Part shown: in pieces, positions 131 to 8,265 of the stretch
Layout: each line of letters starts with the position of its first letter
Numbering within the stretch: the stretch's first letter is position 1
Origin: Nitrososphaeraceae archaeon
Lineage (GTDB): Archaea; Thermoproteota; Nitrososphaeria; Nitrososphaerales; Nitrosopumilaceae
DNA: 32,555 nucleotides
Direction of reading: 5' to 3'
Assembly: GCA_025922755.1 (NCBI GenBank)
Contig: JAICHE010000001.1
Location: forward strand, 1-32,555
Notes under the pieces: generated by a model
Told to the model about the DNA's origin: nothing
Database searches by the model: none
The model's input: only the letters and a program-made list of their open reading frames with translations
Position numbers and translations under genes: made by a program

Positions 131-565
131 TTGATCATGAGAAAATCGCTCTACATGAATATTTTGGTTCCATTGGATGGTTCGGATTATTCCAAAAAAG
201 CACTTCTTCAGGCTTGTGATATGGCCAAAAACTACCAAGCTAATCTCATATTGGTATATGTAGTTGATAAATCCCCTTCTCTAAATCTGTTGGATAGAAA
301 TGAATATTTGAAAATGCTTAGAAGATTTGGAGAAAAAGTTCTAATCCACGGAAAGGAAACTGCAAAAGATAAAGGAATTGATACAACCACTGTTATGAAA
401 GAGGGAAATATAACAAACGAGATAGTAAAACTTGCAAAAAATAAAAAATGTAATTTGATTATAGTGGGAAGTAAGGGTTTGGGTGCAACAGCTAGATTTT
501 TTCTGGGAAGTATCTCCAATAAACTTGCAAATAACTCTCCTTGCTCTGTACTGATTGTAAAATAG
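131..565 (+). CDS. Universal stress protein (UspA family)
   Basis: 144-aa ORF from a TTG. ATG 155 (MNILVPLDGS) is the likelier start. It has the N-terminal ILVPLDGS pattern and the C-terminal G-x2-G-x9-GS nucleotide-binding motif (GSKGLGATARFFLGS) typical of USPs. Confidence 0.85.
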   Translation: MIMRKSLYMNILVPLDGSDYSKKALLQACDMAKNYQANLILVYVVDKSPSLNLLDRNEYLKMLRRFGEKVLIHGKETAKDKGIDTTTVMKEGNITNEIVKLAKNKKCNLIIVGSKGLGATARFFLGSISNKLANNSPCSVLIVK

Positions 566-566
566 T

Positions 567-1478
567 TTAAGCCTCTGCAATAGCTTTTACAATATCTGCT
601 TTAGTGATGATCCCAACCAGTTTTGAATTTTTTACTACTGGTAACCCACTAATTCTATTTCTTATCATTAACAATACAGCAACACTTACGTCTTCATCGG
701 CTTTCACTGTAACTGGATTTGAAGCCATAATATCGACTGCCTTGAAATGAAGAAGGTGACTCATTTGGTTTACCTGAAAGTCACTTGGATCTTTTTTAGT
801 TCTATAGTTTTCTACTTCTTTTGGATCAGCATATTGTGCAATCCAATGAGGTAGTTTTGCTGGAACAAAATCTCGGTAAGTAATTATCCCTACTGGAATT
901 TTATTTCGTTCAATAATAATCCGTGAGATTCTATTATGTATTAACAAACTTTCAACATAAAGTAATGAATCTCCAGGCATCGCGGTAATGACCTTTCTTG
1001 TCATTATTTTGGAGACCTTTAGAGGAGATACTGCATGTGTAAGAAATATGGATGCAAGATCAGTTTTCGTTACAAGTCCTTCTAAAACTCCTTTTTTACC
1101 TAAAACAATAACAGAACTAATTCTATGCCTTTTCATTAACTTAGCACAATCATAAATGGAATCAGTTTGTTTTACAGTAAACAATTTTTTTGACATAAAT
1201 CCTGAAACTTTTACTGATTTGATCGGCTTATCTCCTAAAGCATAAATCGTTTTTGCAATATCCTTTTCAGTAATTATCCCTACAGGACAATTCTTAGAAT
1301 TTATCACAATTAATCTCTTTAAATTATGGCGAAGAAGGACTTCTCTAGCCTCCAATAAAGTTGTATTTGGGCTAATTGTAATAGTTTTTTTAATAATTAT
1401 CTGATTAAGTTCTGCCTTTTTTAATAGCAATATGCCATCTTCAGCTTTTTGGGTTAAATATATGAACTCAAATATCAA
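567..1478 (-). CDS. CBS-domain protein (four tandem CBS repeats)
   Basis: 303-aa ORF with four repeats ending in CBS-type strands (VGIITEKDI, EGLVTKTDL, VGIITYRDF, VGIITKADI) and no other recognisable domain. Tail-to-tail with the USP gene, 1 nt apart. Confidence 0.85.
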   Translation of the reverse strand: MIFEFIYLTQKAEDGILLLKKAELNQIIIKKTITISPNTTLLEAREVLLRHNLKRLIVINSKNCPVGIITEKDIAKTIYALGDKPIKSVKVSGFMSKKLFTVKQTDSIYDCAKLMKRHRISSVIVLGKKGVLEGLVTKTDLASIFLTHAVSPLKVSKIMTRKVITAMPGDSLLYVESLLIHNRISRIIIERNKIPVGIITYRDFVPAKLPHWIAQYADPKEVENYRTKKDPSDFQVNQMSHLLHFKAVDIMASNPVTVKADEDVSVAVLLMIRNRISGLPVVKNSKLVGIITKADIVKAIAEA

Positions 1479-1512
1479 GAATGAAAATCAAATTTGAAAA
1501 TCTAGGGTTTTC

Positions 1513-1528
1513 TTTTAATTTAAAAATA
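1513..1528 (+). promoter_or_regulatory. TATA-like box upstream of the CBS/HPF-like gene
   Basis: TTTTAATTTAAAAATA is centred ~30 nt upstream of ATG 1551 in the 72-nt divergent intergenic region. The spacing fits an archaeal BRE/TATA promoter with a very short or absent leader. Confidence 0.35.
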
Positions 1529-1550
1529 GGTGTTTTATCAATAAAGAAAG

Positions 1551-2717
1551 ATGATAACTGATACAATTTATGAACACCTAAAAGATATTCAAACTACAAA
1601 ACTTAGAAATTTTGTTACGAAACCCACATTAATTGAAACAACTGATACCCTCTCTTCTGTTATCAACAAAATCACTCGAAACAAGTCATATGATGCATTT
1701 TACATTAATGGCAAGAGTACTTTTTCTACAAACGTTCTTTCTCTGCTTAATGCAAAAAATATAACTTCCATGAAAGTAGAGCCATACCTCTCACCCATAC
1801 CTTATGTTTCTCCTAACGACTCGATACAAAAAGCATGTCATATAATGACACATTATAGAACTAGAGAAGTTCCTGTTGTCAGTAAAAATAAAATCATTGG
1901 AGTAGTTACTGCAAAACAAATCATCAAACTACTTTCTTCTAAAGACAACAAATGGATAAAAGCAAACTTGATTTACACTCAAAACCCTATTACGGTTACC
2001 TCAGATGAGCCTTTAAGTGCTGCAAAACGAATAATGATCAATAAGAAAATAGATCATCTTCCGGTAATAAATAAAGACAAAATAACACAAGTTTTAACAT
2101 CCTCTCATCTTATTGAAGCGATAATACCAAAAGAGAGTTTGGGACGTTTATCGAGAGGAGCTAATAGAGTTCATAAATTAGAATCAAGAATAGGTAATAT
2201 CGGTAGTACTAGAATTCCTCAATGTTCACCTAATGATGATTTAAATAAAATTCTAAAACTAATGCTAAAAACAGATACAACGTGTTGTTTGGTAAATCTA
2301 TGGGATAATCTTCAAGGAATAATCACATTCAAAGACATTCTTGGATTATTAGCCACAAAAATAGAAGCACAGATTCCATTATTCATTGTAGGAATGCCAG
2401 AAGACCAAATTAATGTAAATTTGATCACTTCTAAATTCGAAAAAACCCTAAAGCGATTACAACAAACTTATTCGGAAATCCACGAAGCTAGAGTATCTAT
2501 AAAAAAACAGAGAAGCGGTAATAAAAAAGAAGGAAAATTTGATGTAACAATTATGATTACTACATCACACCATACTCCTTTAATTTACAGATCTTTAGGT
2601 TTTGATCTTAGTGAGGTTTTAGAAGACCTTAGCCAAAAACTATTAAGAAATCTTTCCAAAAAAGCAAAACGAAGATCAAAGACAAGCATTAGAAAAATGG
2701 GTCTACCAGTATTCTAA
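1551..2717 (+). CDS. CBS-domain protein (4 CBS repeats) with C-terminal HPF/RaiA (S30AE)-like domain
   Basis: 388-aa ORF. CBS-type repeats end in IIGVVTAKQII, ITQVLTSSHLI and LQGIITFKDIL, plus a degenerate N-terminal one. Residues ~275-372 follow the beta-alpha-beta-beta-beta-alpha sequence pattern of ribosome hibernation factors and are followed by a Lys/Arg-rich tail. Confidence 0.8.
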   Translation: MITDTIYEHLKDIQTTKLRNFVTKPTLIETTDTLSSVINKITRNKSYDAFYINGKSTFSTNVLSLLNAKNITSMKVEPYLSPIPYVSPNDSIQKACHIMTHYRTREVPVVSKNKIIGVVTAKQIIKLLSSKDNKWIKANLIYTQNPITVTSDEPLSAAKRIMINKKIDHLPVINKDKITQVLTSSHLIEAIIPKESLGRLSRGANRVHKLESRIGNIGSTRIPQCSPNDDLNKILKLMLKTDTTCCLVNLWDNLQGIITFKDILGLLATKIEAQIPLFIVGMPEDQINVNLITSKFEKTLKRLQQTYSEIHEARVSIKKQRSGNKKEGKFDVTIMITTSHHTPLIYRSLGFDLSEVLEDLSQKLLRNLSKKAKRRSKTSIRKMGLPVF

Positions 2718-2719
2718 TT

Positions 2720-3448
2720 ATGCAAGTCAGCAAGAAACCTTCCAAAGAACGTGTATTACTTGTAGGATTTCCTAGTAATGGTCTAGTAGGCACTTTTACC
2801 ATTTCATATTTGGTTCATCATTTACAAATGCCACAGATAGGTGAAATAGACCATCCTGATCTCCCCCCAACATTATTTGTTGAAGATGGCGAAATTCTCC
2901 CGCCTATTAGAATCTATAAAAAAAATAATCTTTACGTAATAATGTCAGATCTCCCCTTTGATCAGTTTGTAGCCTATGATTTTGCTCAATCCGTTTTGGA
3001 TTATTGTAAAAAAAATCAGATTTCAAAAATAATTATTATTAGTGGAATGGAAACCATCAATCGGGATCCTAAGGCACCAAAAATATTTGGACTTGTTACG
3101 CACAAATCACTTGAAAAATTACTCTACGATTGTGGAATTTCAAAATTCTTGGCAGGATCAATTTTTGGAACAGATGCTGCAATGATTACTGCATTTAGAA
3201 AATCAAATACCCCTGCTCTAATTTTGTATGCCGAATGCCATCCATTTTTCCCAGATCCTGAAGCGTCAATTATAGCAATTGCAACTCTAGCCAAAATATT
3301 AGATGTCAAAGTGGATACAACTGACATAAAAATGAAATTAGAACGATTACGTATTCAACACAGGAACCTTATGGAAGAAACAATTCGATCTTTACAACAA
3401 CAACAGCAAGAAAAACCGTCAGGACGAGCTCCTCAAATTTACCGGTGA
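2720..3448 (+). CDS. PAC2-family proteasome assembly chaperone (PbaA/PbaB-like)
   Basis: 242-aa ORF. The N-terminal VLLVGFPSNGLVGTFTISYLV matches the PAC2/DUF75 GFPG-x-G-x-VG signature. The extreme C-terminus is ...QIYR, a hydrophobic-Tyr-X (HbYX) proteasome-docking motif. Starts 2 nt after the upstream gene. Confidence 0.8.
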   Translation: MQVSKKPSKERVLLVGFPSNGLVGTFTISYLVHHLQMPQIGEIDHPDLPPTLFVEDGEILPPIRIYKKNNLYVIMSDLPFDQFVAYDFAQSVLDYCKKNQISKIIIISGMETINRDPKAPKIFGLVTHKSLEKLLYDCGISKFLAGSIFGTDAAMITAFRKSNTPALILYAECHPFFPDPEASIIAIATLAKILDVKVDTTDIKMKLERLRIQHRNLMEETIRSLQQQQQEKPSGRAPQIYR

Positions 3449-3452
3449 TTTT

Positions 3453-3845
3453 ATGACTAAACAAGAAGACAATAACAAAATTAGAATATTTCAACCAGTA
3501 TTTAGCTCATTACTAAATGATGATGTGGAACAACATAGTCTTTCTCCTTTATCTTGTTTAAGGGAATTTGGGACTTATTGGTTACTAGAATTTGACCTTC
3601 CCTTAGTAAATAAAAAAGATATTAAAATTACATTTGACGAAAACACCGTTTCAGTTGAAGCAAAATTAAAGGAAACTTATTCTGAGGAAAAATTTGGAAT
3701 AAAAACTAAATTTGAATACTTCAAAAAAACAATAACTCTCCCCTCCAAAATTAATAACAAAAAAGCAAGTGCAAAATTTACTAACGGAAGATTAACTATT
3801 ACAATACCAAAAGGGAACTTAGGTCATAAAATAAAAATAGAATAA
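3453..3845 (+). CDS. hsp20: Small heat-shock protein (Hsp20 / alpha-crystallin family)
   Basis: 130-aa ORF with an alpha-crystallin domain pattern (ITFDENTVSVEAKL ... KTITLPSKI ... AKFTNGRLTITIPK). 4-nt gap from the PAC2 gene. Confidence 0.85.
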   Translation: MTKQEDNNKIRIFQPVFSSLLNDDVEQHSLSPLSCLREFGTYWLLEFDLPLVNKKDIKITFDENTVSVEAKLKETYSEEKFGIKTKFEYFKKTITLPSKINNKKASAKFTNGRLTITIPKGNLGHKIKIE

Positions 3846-4118
3846 TCACTTGAAAAATTGATCAATTTGGTCTCTATACTTGACAGTCATTTTTCCAAAT
3901 TCGGTGAAATCCTCTGCAGTAGGATACTTTAATCTCATTGCATATTGATTTACAAAAATCGAAACAGCACTTCCAACAATTAGATTGTAACATGCATCAG
4001 CTAGATTTTTGGAGTAAGGAAATGCTACTTTGATAAAAGGCAAATAAGCTTCTGTTTGTGAAATCATTAATTTGATCTGTTTTTCTACATAATCTTGAAC
4101 ATCTTCTGGAATAGTCAT
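3846..4118 (-). CDS. Hypothetical protein (90 aa)
   Basis: Non-overlapped ORF filling the gap between hsp20 and the Cys-rich gene. No motif recognised. Confidence 0.5.
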   Translation of the reverse strand: MTIPEDVQDYVEKQIKLMISQTEAYLPFIKVAFPYSKNLADACYNLIVGSAVSIFVNQYAMRLKYPTAEDFTEFGKMTVKYRDQIDQFFK

Positions 4119-4168: not shown

Positions 4169-4381
4169 TTATGATACGATTTGTTCTAGATATCGTTCTT
4201 TCCCTTTTCTACTTCTAGGAAGACAACGTAATTGCCTATTACAACAAGGGCATGTAATTCCGTCGTAATCTACAAAAATCTCACAATAATTACATCTTTT
4301 TTGTCCAGCTGCATACCGTCCTATTCTTGATGGTTTTTGTGCTTTGTAATTTTTACATTTACCAATACAATAAGTCATCAT
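4169..4381 (-). CDS. Small Cys-rich zinc-ribbon protein (70 aa)
   Basis: Cys pairs C5-x3-C9, C30-x2-C33 and C44-x-C46-C47, followed by a basic C-terminal tail (RSRKGKERY). Looks like a two-knuckle zinc ribbon. Confidence 0.6.
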   Translation of the reverse strand: MMTYCIGKCKNYKAQKPSRIGRYAAGQKRCNYCEIFVDYDGITCPCCNRQLRCLPRSRKGKERYLEQIVS

Positions 4382-4871: not shown

Positions 4872-6254
4872 TTATTCTTTTTGAGAATCTTCTGGGGGTT
4901 TGGTGATAAAACCTCCCTCTTTTGGTTCTGGAGGAGGTATTTTTTTTGATCTTCCTAAACCGATAGTTGTAATAATTACCGAGGATAGAATAATAAAAAA
5001 AACAATCTGTGAATAGATCTCAGCATTTGGTAATCCTAGCGTTAAAGGAAAAGTTGCTAAAACAGCCGCTGCTAAACCTCTTGGAATCATTGAATAAGTC
5101 ACCTTTCTGTCGAGTAACGAAAACCTCTTGGTTAGAGTTATCTTTCCTATAATTACTCTTCCAAAATAAATTAAAATTGTAATTCCGATTCCAATTATTA
5201 TATATTCATAATTTCCAACACTTGCCATTAATCCTACAAAAACAAAAAAGAACACCCTTACAAGAAATGTTAATTGATTATGGGTTGGATCATCAACTTC
5301 GATTCTTGGAAGTTTGAATTTTAAGACCCTTGCAAGGTGTTTCTTATTTCCCAACATTAATCCAAATACTAAAGCAGTAAGTGCGCCTGATTCTCCAAAA
5401 GAATTTGCTAAAAAGAACAACAAAAACAGTATTCCTAAAGTCAACATGTAGGAGTGCTGGGCATTGCCAAGCTTTGTGTTAACATACATCCAAGGAATTC
5501 CTACTCCAAACCCAAGTACCAATCCTACAATAATGGATCTTCCCAATGTTTCTTGCAATACCTGTAAATCAAATTGACCTGCAAGTATTGCACCAAATAG
5601 AATGAAAGCAAATATTGTCGATAAAATATCCGTCAGAGCAGATTCAAAACTAAGCATGTTTTTTGTTTCCTCAGAAATTCTGATATTTCTGACAAGCCCA
5701 AATACAATCGCTGAACTACTTCCTCCTACGATTGAACCAAGTAGAATGCTCTCTAGCCACGACCAATCCAAAAGATAGTGTACAGCAAAGGTAGTAATTG
5801 CAACTGATAAAATAAAACCCAGAATAGCTAATGTAAAAGCAAAATGTGCCGTTTTTATCATCTGTTTAAGATCTAAATTTAATCCTCCATCAAACATGAT
5901 GATTATCAAAGCTAAAGCTGCAAAATATGGAACAATTTGAATTACGGCCTCTGCTTGAATGATTCCAAGAATTGGTCCAATAATTACTCCAAGTACCATC
6001 AAAAATGCAACATCTGGTATTCCTGTTTTTTTGAAAAAAGCCTCACCTGCCACTCCAAGAAAAATTGCAACACCTGCTGCCAATAAAATTACATGAGCAG
6101 AAGCAACTGGCCCATCTTGACTCAGAGTTCCCAAGAAATTTTGAAATTCGTTTATTTTTTCTAAGAAAAATTTAGTATCAAAACTGCTTAAGGATGGAAT
6201 ATCATCTATCTGTCCTCTGATTAGCTCCAATATTCCCAAAAAAATAGGATTCAT
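4872..6254 (-). CDS. Na+/H+ (cation/proton) antiporter, CPA1/NhaP-like
   Basis: 460-aa polytopic membrane protein with more than 10 hydrophobic segments. Has the CPA1-type MFDGGLNLD segment and a short hydrophilic C-terminal tail. Confidence 0.85.
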   Translation of the reverse strand: MNPIFLGILELIRGQIDDIPSLSSFDTKFFLEKINEFQNFLGTLSQDGPVASAHVILLAAGVAIFLGVAGEAFFKKTGIPDVAFLMVLGVIIGPILGIIQAEAVIQIVPYFAALALIIIMFDGGLNLDLKQMIKTAHFAFTLAILGFILSVAITTFAVHYLLDWSWLESILLGSIVGGSSSAIVFGLVRNIRISEETKNMLSFESALTDILSTIFAFILFGAILAGQFDLQVLQETLGRSIIVGLVLGFGVGIPWMYVNTKLGNAQHSYMLTLGILFLLFFLANSFGESGALTALVFGLMLGNKKHLARVLKFKLPRIEVDDPTHNQLTFLVRVFFFVFVGLMASVGNYEYIIIGIGITILIYFGRVIIGKITLTKRFSLLDRKVTYSMIPRGLAAAVLATFPLTLGLPNAEIYSQIVFFIILSSVIITTIGLGRSKKIPPPEPKEGGFITKPPEDSQKE

Positions 6255-6361: not shown

Positions 6362-6904
6362 ATGAGTGCCACTGAAGAACTTAGAGCAGATCATGACCAA
6401 GTACGTCGATTGCAAAAAGTAATTGAAAAATGTACTGCAAAAATAAAGGGTGGATCGAATATTCCTTTTGGCGATATTGAAAAAATCACAATTATTATTT
6501 ATGAATTTGTAGATACCATTCACCATTCTAGAGAGGAAAATTCGTATTTTCCATGTGTAGCAAGTTATGATACACTCAAAGAAGAAATTCGAGCATTTAT
6601 GATTGAACATGAATTTGGGAGAAATATTGCAAGAGAAATAACAAAACATCTACAAAGATGGAAAAAAGGAGAAGATGCAAGAGAACCTGTTTCAAGATTC
6701 TTGAGAACTTATTCTATTTACCTTTATGACCACCTAAACAAAGAGAACAAATTTTTTGATCAAGCTGAAGCCGAAGTTTTATCAAAAGAAGAAGAAATTG
6801 AGATGTATGAGCAATATAGATCAATAACGGCAATTACAAAAAAGAAAGAAGATATGATTAAGGAAATTGATTATTTGGAAAATCAGCCTTGGTTCCAAAT
6901 TTAA
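6362..6904 (+). CDS. Hemerythrin-like (HHE cation-binding) domain protein
   Basis: 180-aa ORF with spaced His/Glu ligand pattern (RADHD, HHSREE, IEHEFGR, YDHLNKEN) as in hemerythrin-like four-helix bundles. Confidence 0.65.
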   Translation: MSATEELRADHDQVRRLQKVIEKCTAKIKGGSNIPFGDIEKITIIIYEFVDTIHHSREENSYFPCVASYDTLKEEIRAFMIEHEFGRNIAREITKHLQRWKKGEDAREPVSRFLRTYSIYLYDHLNKENKFFDQAEAEVLSKEEEIEMYEQYRSITAITKKKEDMIKEIDYLENQPWFQI

Positions 6905-6942: not shown

Positions 6943-7458
6943 ATGAAACCGTTTGTTCTTTGGATGACTGGGCTTCCTTGTTCAGGAAAGACTACGATCG
7001 TTAAAGATTTGCAAAAAGACATTCCTAATTTGGCAATGCTTGATGGTGATGAATTAAGAGAATGGTTCTCACCTAAGGACTTTTCAAAAGAAGGAAGAGA
7101 TGAGCATAATAAAAAAGTCGCTCATTTGGCTAAACTTTTGCTAAAACATGGTGTCCCAAGCGCTGTTTCTCTAGTTTCTCCATATTTGGAAAATAGACAA
7201 AAAGCACGAGAAATTATTGATGCAGGTGATCAATTTGCAGAATGTTATGTAAAATGTTCACTTGCAAAATGTGAAGAAAGGGACGTCAAAGGCATGTATG
7301 CCAAAGCAAGAAAGGGTGAGATTAAGGGATTTACTGGAATTGATGATCCTTATGAAGCACCTGAAAAAGCAGATCTGGTAATTGACACCGAAAATGAACC
7401 ATTATCAGAAAGTGCCAACAAAGTTAAAGAATTTCTCAAAGGAAGAAATCTAATTTAA
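6943..7458 (+). CDS. cysC: Adenylyl-sulfate (APS) kinase
   Basis: 171-aa ORF. P-loop WMTGLPCSGKTT near the N-terminus, LDGDELR and the size are typical of CysC. Confidence 0.9.
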   Translation: MKPFVLWMTGLPCSGKTTIVKDLQKDIPNLAMLDGDELREWFSPKDFSKEGRDEHNKKVAHLAKLLLKHGVPSAVSLVSPYLENRQKAREIIDAGDQFAECYVKCSLAKCEERDVKGMYAKARKGEIKGFTGIDDPYEAPEKADLVIDTENEPLSESANKVKEFLKGRNLI

Positions 7459-8265
7459 TTTTTTAAATTCTTCCAATATTTTATTATGAATCAGACCATT
7501 GGTCACCAAAATTCCATTTTGATGATGTACTATTTCATTATTGTAAGTAAGATCATTACCTAGCATATCTGTCATTTTCCCCCCAGCCTCTGTAATTATA
7601 CAATAAGAAGCAGCAGAATCCCATTCTTTCATTTTATTTGTAGTTGTGATGTATGCCTCAGCCTCACCCGAACTAATTTTTCCAACCTTCAATGAACTTC
7701 CAATACTTGTAAAATCTTCAATTCCTAATTTTTCTATAAATGATTTTTCTTTATCTGAGAGATGATGTCTTGAACCTACTGCTCTACATTTTGATAACTC
7801 GGAAACATTAGTTACTGAAATTTTCCTCCATTCTCCATTAAAATATCTGAAAGCTCCACCATCCTTTTGAGCAGCAAAAATAGTTTTTTCTGTTGGCCAT
7901 CCAATTACACCTAATATCGGTTTTTGATTTCTAACCAGGGCTATCATAACGGTAAATTCTCCAGTTTTATCAATAAAATCTGATGTGCCGTCTAGGGGAT
8001 CTACAATCCAAACCATTTCTTTTGTTAATCTACTCTTATCATCCTTGTCTTCTTCCGATAAAATATGATGAGGAGTTTTAGAAAGGATACTTTTGATTAT
8101 TTCATTGCTTTTTACATCTGCCTCTGTAATCGGAGAATCGTCATGCTTGGTGGAAGTTTCATAATTTTCTCCATAGATTTCCAGTATTGCTTTACCAGCC
8201 TCACTTACTGCCTGTAATGCGACATCAAACTCGGGAAGTTTATTTGAAATTGGAATATTGTTCAA
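7450..8265 (-). CDS. cysQ: 3'(2'),5'-bisphosphate nucleotidase CysQ-like (inositol monophosphatase superfamily)
   Basis: 271-aa ORF with IMPase-superfamily motifs LSEED, WIVDPLDGTSDF and KEWDSAA...EAGG. The EWD-x-AA form and the convergent 9-nt overlap with cysC favour PAP phosphatase over IMPase/FBPase. Confidence 0.75.
   Translation of the reverse strand: MNNIPISNKLPEFDVALQAVSEAGKAILEIYGENYETSTKHDDSPITEADVKSNEIIKSILSKTPHHILSEEDKDDKSRLTKEMVWIVDPLDGTSDFIDKTGEFTVMIALVRNQKPILGVIGWPTEKTIFAAQKDGGAFRYFNGEWRKISVTNVSELSKCRAVGSRHHLSDKEKSFIEKLGIEDFTSIGSSLKVGKISSGEAEAYITTTNKMKEWDSAASYCIITEAGGKMTDMLGNDLTYNNEIVHHQNGILVTNGLIHNKILEEFKKLN

Follow-up and report, generated by a model that had tools for sequence, protein, structure and literature searches.

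The window, that is, the whole 32,555-nt stretch of DNA analyzed here, comes from an archaeon of the lineage Nitrosopumilaceae (GC content ~32%) and carries near its start an open reading frame (ORF) of 388 codons, which begins with ATG and includes its stop codon within the coordinates 1551..2717. The encoded protein is composed of four CBS repeats, a basic loop between the third and fourth repeat, a C-terminal domain (CTD) with the HPF/RaiA fold and a conserved basic tail, and it is colinear with the archaeal ribosome hibernation factor HibA. We consider it quite likely, by homology to the characterized proteins, that this gene encodes the form that the archaeal hibernation factor HibA/AHA takes in Nitrosopumilaceae. 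The parts of the protein and the genes around it are listed in Table 1.

Table 1. Features of the HibA-like gene and its surroundings in the window (aa, amino acids; pLDDT, predicted local distance difference test)
Feature	Coordinates	Strand	Evidence
Whole gene: HibA/AHA-type protein, CBS tetrad + HPF/RaiA-like CTD + basic tail	1551..2717	+	ORF and HibA colinearity
N-terminal CBS module, aa 1-271	1551..2363	+	Pfam CBS E 5.8e-31; AlphaFold2 model
CBS repeats (approximate): CBS1 aa 16-70, CBS2 71-130, CBS3 131-191, CBS4 215-271			
Basic CBS3-CBS4 loop, aa 192-214	2124..2192	+	Low pLDDT; hhalign to HibA loop
HPF/RaiA-like CTD, aa 277-373	2379..2669	+	AlphaFold2, Foldseek, CTD profile
CTD elements: beta1 aa 277-280, alpha1 289-306, beta2 310-320, beta3 329-338, beta4 344-350, alpha2 353-373			
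Basic C-terminal tail, aa 374-388, RRSKTSIRKMGLPVF, motif S-I-R-K	2670..2714	+	CTD alignments
Divergent promoter region, 72 nt, between HibA-like and SriC-like genes	1479..1550	.	36-locus alignment
SriC-like protein with four CBS repeats, 303 aa, divergently adjacent	567..1478	-	Pfam CBS x4 E 1.9e-51
PAC2-family gene (proteasome assembly chaperone-like), 2 nt downstream	2720..3448	+	Pfam PAC2 E 1.3e-35
Hsp20/alpha-crystallin gene, 4 nt past PAC2	3453..3845	+	Pfam HSP20 E 1e-13
Universal stress protein (USP) gene, convergent with SriC-like gene	131..565	+	Pfam Usp E 9.7e-35

Three CBS stretches score above the Pfam threshold in the 388-aa protein, and the AlphaFold2 model of the full-length chain contains four CBS-like units. 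The initial annotation, made from the letters alone, had placed four CBS repeats ahead of the CTD, which is in line with the Pfam matches, the model and the HibA alignment. Foldseek matches of the full-length model describe the CBS module only (MJ1225, AMPK-gamma, Sri proteins and Dri, a set that is also reported for AHA), and an NCBIfam scan of the protein returned generic CBS-containing families only, all far under their cut-offs. The G-h-h-T-x-x-D motif, which belongs to the ribose/phosphate site of CBS domains, is essentially invariant in CBS4 only (GIITFKD), whereas the corresponding stretch of CBS3 (QVLTSSH) lacks the Asp. The loop joining CBS3 and CBS4 has an isoelectric point (pI) of 11.6, and its segment 193-209 shows low pLDDT in the full-length model.

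The C-terminal peptide of residues 275-388 (nt 2373 is codon 275) had been read correctly at the outset, and its proposed HPF/RaiA-like nature is borne out by family ranking, profile searches and structure prediction. The top Pfam match of the C-terminal 119 residues is PF02482 (Ribosomal_S30AE; E 0.0013, profile positions 16-87 of 88). A profile built from 42 family sequences cut to the CTD (alignment A4) was run against 177,635 PDB sequences, and its best match is the HPF of S. aureus (6qbz_A, E 1.4e-5, profile positions 20-113). Bacterial HPFs make up most of the best PDB matches of this profile, including also 5nd8_v, 6s0x_v, Listeria 8uu4_w, 9t0z_9 and 4v8h_AX, and the alignments span helix 1 to helix 2. 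In addition, hhalign of the CTD profile with approximate single sequences of E. coli HPF and RaiA gave E 3.4e-4 and 8.6e-4 at low probabilities and lends weak support.

The AlphaFold2 model of residues 265-388 adopts the b-a-b-b-b-a topology with a mean pLDDT of 74.9 (78-89 in the core). When this model was compared with the PDB by Foldseek, all of the top 15 matches were HPF, RaiA or pY structures, each at probability 1.00 and with template-modeling (TM) scores of 0.53-0.77; examples are plastid pY 5mmj_y (E 1.1e-5), Psychrobacter RaiA 8rd8_D, Vibrio HPF 4hei_A and the mycobacterial 5zep_x. Beyond rank 15 the list passes to unrelated LptE/PelC folds. Judged from the profiles and the predicted structure, the resemblance between the CTD and HPF is real homology at the level of fold and profile, despite failing the Pfam threshold. 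A stretch that the initial annotation had called a basic insert (KKQRSGNKKEGK) is indeed basic, but it forms the beta2-beta3 hairpin loop; compared with S. aureus HPF nothing is inserted here, and the loop of E. coli HPF is shorter by just a few residues. The basic character extends through the domain (pI 10.1) and rises to pI 12.0 over residues 366-388. Within the tail, no variation occurs at the R, K, S, R and K positions across the CTD alignments, and the S-I-R-K motif is invariant in the Nitrosopumilaceae clade and present in 30 family representatives, mostly standalone forms.

Two proteins with the same domain arrangement were published in 2025-2026 with cryo-electron microscopy (cryo-EM), genetics and AMP/ATP binding (PMC13324472; PMC12934967). 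HibA (P. abyssi Q9UYR4 and T. barophilus; PDB 9SR9-9SRF and 9T7H; Madru et al. 2026, PMC13324472) was discovered by cryo-EM on Pyrococcus abyssi ribosomes and consists of four CBS repeats (1-269) followed by an HPF/RaiA-like domain (270-392). Its CTD lies in the 30S subunit's mRNA/tRNA channel, and its C-terminal end is located at the opening into the mRNA exit channel (PMC13324472). The CBS module takes three positions on the 50S subunit, one of which puts loop 190-207 (the 'PTC loop') at the peptidyl-transferase center; in isolation it binds AMP (dissociation constant 12 uM) better than ADP, and ADP better than ATP, at a single CBS3/CBS4 site (PMC13324472). AHA from Haloferax volcanii is likewise a protein of four CBS repeats plus HPF, binds two AMP at CBS3/CBS4, and its deletion causes a fitness defect in stationary phase (2026, PMC12934967). 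Hibernation factors made of CBS domains only are also described, namely SriA-D of M. acetivorans (9ZNF/9ZNG/9ZNI), ARC-P/ARC-A of Methanolobus and Dri of Pyrobaculum (9E6Q).

The protein of the window aligns with HibA over almost its whole length. A family profile built from 66 sequences around it (A3) finds P. abyssi HibA as its best PDB match (9sr9_H, E 1e-38), in one alignment that joins profile positions 12-364 to chain positions 6-372; the PDB codes of the HibA chains were verified as HibA. The direct hhalign comparison of the family profile with P. abyssi HibA is colinear over 328 columns (99.6% probability, E 1.1e-24), with all four repeats of the CBS module aligned to HibA residues 6-270. 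The second PDB match of the profile is 9l96_a, a 406-aa 'CBS domain-containing protein' (E 2e-37; also 9l98, 9l9c and 9l9v), whose sequence is acidic and haloarchaeal-looking and whose match envelope reaches residue 393. This chain is probably another solved factor of the HibA/AHA type; 9L96 does not appear in the ARC preprint.

The window protein and HibA share the four CBS repeats (~270 aa), the C-terminal b-a-b-b-b-a domain, the basic C-terminus and the domain boundary (~270); their lengths are 388 and 392 aa. The CBS3-CBS4 loop corresponds in position to the 'PTC loop' of HibA and is of equal length within one residue, and its sequence is poorly conserved in the family of the window protein. 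The single T-x-x-D motif, in CBS4, would fit the one CBS3/CBS4 nucleotide site of HibA. On the other hand, BLASTP identity to P. abyssi HibA is ~22% and restricted to the CBS module, the CTD similarity taken alone is not significant, the S-I-R-K tail is specific to the subfamily, and the window gene is paired with a SriC-like gene and followed by PAC2 and Hsp20. The definition of AHA, four CBS repeats plus HPF, applies identically to the window protein, and in both the CBS module resembles AMPK-gamma and MJ1225; AHA holds two AMP at CBS3/CBS4, whereas the window protein keeps the canonical T-x-x-D in CBS4 only.

The CTD also shares with bacterial and plastid HPF, RaiA (YfiA) and pY (PF02482, COG1544) the fold and the order of elements seen in the Foldseek matches, the basic character and a significant profile similarity from alpha1 to alpha2. 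It differs in its score under the Pfam gathering value, in its longer, basic beta2-beta3 loop and tail, and in its position C-terminal to a CBS tetrad, whereas the bacterial domain stands alone or N-terminal to the dimerization domain of long HPF; Pfam detected no such long-HPF C-terminal domain in the window protein. A canonical bacterial HPF was rejected as an identity for the protein, given the score below the gathering value and the CBS tetrad in front of the CTD. Sri, ARC and Dri proteins are all CBS tetrads, and the window CBS module matches Sri chains strongly, but they are without an HPF domain, and Dri joins two CBS tetrads in one chain of 655 aa. Since the window protein has the HPF-fold CTD, its identification as a Sri protein or as Dri was likewise rejected.

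If the window protein works as HibA and AHA do, its HPF domain would plug the decoding site and mRNA channel of the small subunit, and the basic tail would reach toward the exit channel for mRNA. The CBS module would dock on the large subunit and take tRNA positions, with its loop inserted at the peptidyl-transferase center. Because the HPF domain, the tail and the CBS module would dock as in HibA/AHA, one polypeptide could clamp the idle 70S ribosome, block translation and shield rRNA from degradation. The interface of CBS3 and CBS4 would hold adenine nucleotides, which may tune the association. The initial annotation had proposed a CBS-gated, HPF-like ribosome silencer; such an architecture and function have since been demonstrated by experiment for HibA/AHA, and homology to them supports the proposal. 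As AMP or ATP had no clear effect on ribosome binding even with P. abyssi HibA, 'energy-charge-controlled' silencing is a hypothesis.

A number of observations weigh against the assignment to HibA/AHA. PF02482, although the top match of the CTD, reaches 19.9 bits with the CTD alone and 17.2 bits with the whole protein, under the gathering score of 23.7. In the family it is found at E < 0.01 in 8 of 66 members, each time sub-threshold. The sub-threshold scores agree with the published low identity of archaeal HPF domains to their bacterial counterparts (PMC13324472), and for HPF domains of archaea, membership is not something that Pfam can settle. A phmmer search of the PDB with the CTD gave noise only (MAP kinase kinase 7, E > 1), and a narrow profile of 12 Nitrosopumilaceae CTDs found nothing relevant in the PDB. 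Compared with the CTD of P. abyssi HibA by itself, the CTD profile shows no significant similarity (hhalign E 0.03, probability 1.7%). In a single-sequence search of the PDB, the CBS module places the Sri chain 9znf_5 first and HibA behind it, which is a ranking and not a phylogeny; the CBS modules of HibA form a monophyletic clade (HibA-CM), sister to CM-5/SriA. The full-length AlphaFold2 model has a predicted TM score of 0.37, and its domain packing is not interpretable. Nucleotides (AMP/ATP) had no clear effect on the ribosome binding of P. abyssi HibA in vitro (PMC13324472). Moreover, the support for the window protein and its lineage is computational, with ribosome binding and nucleotide gating carried over by homology, and a published survey, discussed below, lists Nitrosopumilaceae among lineages without identifiable factors.

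The gene is widespread and well conserved in its lineage. Two CTD peptide patterns, scanned over the species-representative genomes of GTDB, gave 60 loci, all from Nitrosopumilaceae or labelled Nitrososphaerota/Thaumarchaeota, with named homologs in Nitrosopumilus, Nitrosarchaeum and Ca. Nitrosomaritimum. The closest loci (CTD identity 94-96%) come from metagenome-assembled genomes of Nitrosopumilaceae and from Ca. Nitrosomaritimum aestuariumsis, and the most distant ones from Nitrosopelagicus (CTD identity 47-49%) and CSP1-1. The protein is 380-396 aa long in 54 loci and exactly 388 aa in ~42. Column conservation over 54 orthologs falls at 0.77-0.86 by region outside the CBS3-CBS4 loop (0.77-0.85 in CBS1-4, 0.83 in the CTD core, 0.84 in helix 2 and 0.81 in the tail), and the loop itself has the lowest value (0.65). 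The family is under purifying conservation. When the narrow CTD profile was searched against 1.84 billion cluster representatives, 117 proteins were found at E <= 1e-3; about half of them are 340-410 aa long with the match at ~273-375, an identical layout, and the rest are mostly standalone proteins of ~120 aa. Orthologs are labelled 'CBS domain-containing protein/ribosome-associated translation inhibitor RaiA' in IMG and 'CBS domain-containing protein' at NCBI. The premise of the initial annotation that archaeal ribosome hibernation is only beginning to be described has thus been overtaken, both by the publication of HibA/AHA and by the RaiA label that IMG already gives to orthologs.

Additional forms of the gene occur in the related genomes. 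Some Nitrosopumilaceae have a second full-length copy, 66-82% identical, without SriC-like, PAC2 or Hsp20 neighbors (loci L009, L025, L028, L034, L036, L038, L039, L042, L046, L047, L052 and L055). Two copies are present, for example, in Nitrosarchaeum sp. BD3 (L020, L055) and in assembly DATKYM01 (L012, L046); the match in L055 is 350 nt long, and this copy may be frameshifted. The standalone HPF-like proteins (~120 aa; P0029-P0031 and P0156-P0162) show 38-45% identity to the CTD of the window protein and carry the S-I-R-K tail as well. Their genes, for example the one at 5001-5417 of L061, have no adjacent CBS gene and lie beside a PadR-family gene, and the proteins fit the 'HPF/RaiA-like' class that is ascribed to loss of the CBS module (PMC13324472). 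Two short gene calls, P0002 (141 aa, on a 50-kb contig) and P0027 (123 aa, on a 123-kb contig), contain a partial CBS4 plus the CTD, or the CTD behind an N-terminus that is hydrophobic and unrelated; truncation or disruption of the copies, or an artifact of gene calling, may explain them.

This distribution differs from the published picture. In the HibA report, Nitrosopumilaceae and Poseidoniia are named as the most notable lineages without identifiable factors, and a weaker selective pressure for hibernation in the water column is drawn from that absence (PMC13324472). Judged from sequence, a HibA-type gene is conserved across Nitrosopumilaceae, with at least 54 species-representative loci, contrary to the reported absence. 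The detection hidden Markov model (HMM) of the survey was iterated from the C-terminal region of P. abyssi HibA (PMC13324472). The P. abyssi HibA CTD on its own does not lead to the window-type CTD, and the miss may plausibly stem from this. By sequence comparison, bacterial HPF (E 1.4e-5) is nearer to the CTD than the HibA CTD is (E 0.03), and a divergent family branch that is more like bacterial HPF can escape HMMs seeded from Thermococcales HibA. The AHA survey was seeded with the HPF of Nitrososphaera viennensis (PMC12934967), and on that account probably reaches the Nitrosopumilaceae clade.

The architecture and the basic mechanism are already known, having been published as HibA/AHA in other archaea. 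What is new here is limited to a divergent member in a lineage reported to lack the factor and to a conserved gene neighborhood that was unreported. Nitrosopumilaceae are ammonia oxidizers that live under chronic energy limitation and rank among the most abundant microbes of the ocean. A conserved gene in Nitrosopumilus, Nitrosarchaeum, Nitrosomaritimum and Nitrosopelagicus would revise the picture of a lineage without hibernation, and it offers a specific candidate for testing in cultured strains.

Among the alternatives to a HibA/AHA ortholog, the best surviving one is convergent architecture, in which a CBS tetrad was fused independently to a standalone HPF-like protein common in Nitrososphaeria, giving a protein that is HibA-like in action but not orthologous. 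Such an origin would account for the 38-45% identity of the CTD to ~120-aa standalone proteins with the same S-I-R-K tail, for a CTD profile nearer to bacterial HPF than to the HibA CTD, for the Sri chain as best single-sequence match of the CBS module and for the HibA-seeded survey apparently missing Nitrosopumilaceae. However, the HibA alignment is colinear, with the boundary at ~270 and the length of the CBS3-CBS4 loop shared, and the CTD profile reaches a continuous set of proteins with the same layout (370-410 aa). Moreover, standalone HPF-like proteins are nested inside the HibA clades, so that change has more commonly gone toward losing the CBS module (PMC13324472). We regard an independent fusion as distinctly unlikely.

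A metabolic or transcriptional regulator with CBS domains, in which the HPF-fold CTD is repurposed, for example for another RNA or a protein, and does not act on the ribosome, appears highly improbable. CBS tetrads do have many roles, as in the CM-3/HhpR family of transcription regulators (PMC13324472), the N. maritimus CBS proteins encoded beside uspA genes act as heat-induced stress proteins, and a ribosome role in Nitrosopumilaceae would follow from homology. Yet the Foldseek list points specifically to ribosome hibernation factors, the basic character of CTD, tail and loop is what rRNA binding would predict, and all characterized proteins with the two-domain layout bind ribosomes (PMC13324472; PMC12934967). 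In addition, no DNA-binding domain was detected in the Pfam and NCBIfam scans of the protein. Finally, a chance resemblance of a low-complexity, lysine-rich tail in an AT-rich genome, to which the sub-threshold PF02482 score, other weak Pfam matches at similar E-value (Methyltransf_12 and Spc24) and the GC content of ~32% might point, is effectively refuted by the CTD profile, the AlphaFold2 topology and Foldseek, since independent profile and structural evidence converges on HPF alone, the CTD is conserved as much as the CBS module across genera, and it exists elsewhere as a standalone gene.

The HibA-like gene is embedded in a conserved neighborhood. The USP, second CBS-tetrad, PAC2 and Hsp20 genes that the initial annotation had named around it are all confirmed by Pfam. 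The best PDB match of the divergently transcribed SriC-like protein is 9zni_6 (E 4.4e-22), which comes from the 70S-SriC-SriD complex of M. acetivorans and differs from the SriD chain found alone in 9ZNG. A 'SriC-short' group is present in Nitrososphaerales according to the Sri paper, and the 567..1478 protein probably belongs to this group. The SriC-like gene adjoins the HibA-like gene in 41 of the 60 loci, and PAC2 is directly downstream in 34; among the other loci, many are interrupted by the end of a contig or represent a second copy at another genomic site. The order HibA-like, PAC2, Hsp20 is kept in most related genomes, and because the gaps are only 2 nt and 4 nt, the HibA-like gene is probably co-transcribed with PAC2 and Hsp20 as one operon, which suggests a link between ribosome hibernation and proteostasis.

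The 72 nt between the HibA-like and SriC-like genes contain near-invariant blocks over 36 Nitrosopumilaceae loci, out to CSP1-1 and Nitrosopelagicus. A TATA-like block (TTTCTTTTAATTTAAAA) occupies positions 1509-1525, ~30 nt 5' of the ATG. Tandem TGAAAATCW units lie at 1482-1490 and 1495-1503, with conserved TGAAAATC repeats in the region 1479-1550, and the repeat unit could be a shared operator. The TGAAWATCW unit is not enriched across the window (9 matches, ~6 expected). A further copy of the unit is found at 90-98 on the reverse strand, 5' of the USP gene. The conserved divergent promoter shared by the HibA-like and SriC-like genes suggests that they belong to a module for stress or dormancy. 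A hint on expression, should orthology to the window locus hold, comes from N. maritimus, where the top growth temperature was the only one at which CBS proteins encoded next to uspA were detected. A search of Rfam found no RNA family in the window.

The SriC-like protein is a candidate partner of the HibA-like protein, and the two genes may form one functional unit. A hybrid system of two factors can be envisaged, in which the HibA-like and SriC-like proteins, co-regulated from the 72-nt region, act in tandem on one ribosome, and PAC2/Hsp20 couple silencing to proteostasis. The SriC-like protein would then occupy the P/E sites of the small subunit and the 16S 3' end, and the HPF domain would sit in the A/P channel, replacing SriD. 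We regard this hybrid system as speculative and rather unlikely. If true, it would contradict the reported mutual exclusion, or rare co-occurrence, of hibA and sri genes, as well as the inference that abundant marine planktonic archaea dispensed with ribosome hibernation. The conserved SriC-like pairing and the probable PAC2-Hsp20 operon offer testable starting points for asking how stress responses and hibernation are connected in Nitrosopumilaceae.

Downstream of Hsp20 lie two small ORFs without a Pfam match, 3846..4118 and 4169..4381, both on the reverse strand. One encodes 90 aa and the other 70 aa (Cys-rich, zinc-ribbon-like), and they are 72-97% identical and syntenic in most related loci. 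Further along the window are a Na+/H+ exchanger gene (4872..6254) and a hemerythrin-domain gene (6362..6904). An adenosine 5'-phosphosulfate (APS) kinase gene (6943..7458, forward strand) overlaps convergently with an inositol-monophosphatase-family gene (7450..8265, reverse strand). The latter is possibly a CysQ-like phosphatase of 3'-phosphoadenosine 5'-phosphate (PAP), and the two genes hint at a small pair devoted to the metabolism of 3'-phosphoadenosine 5'-phosphosulfate (PAPS).

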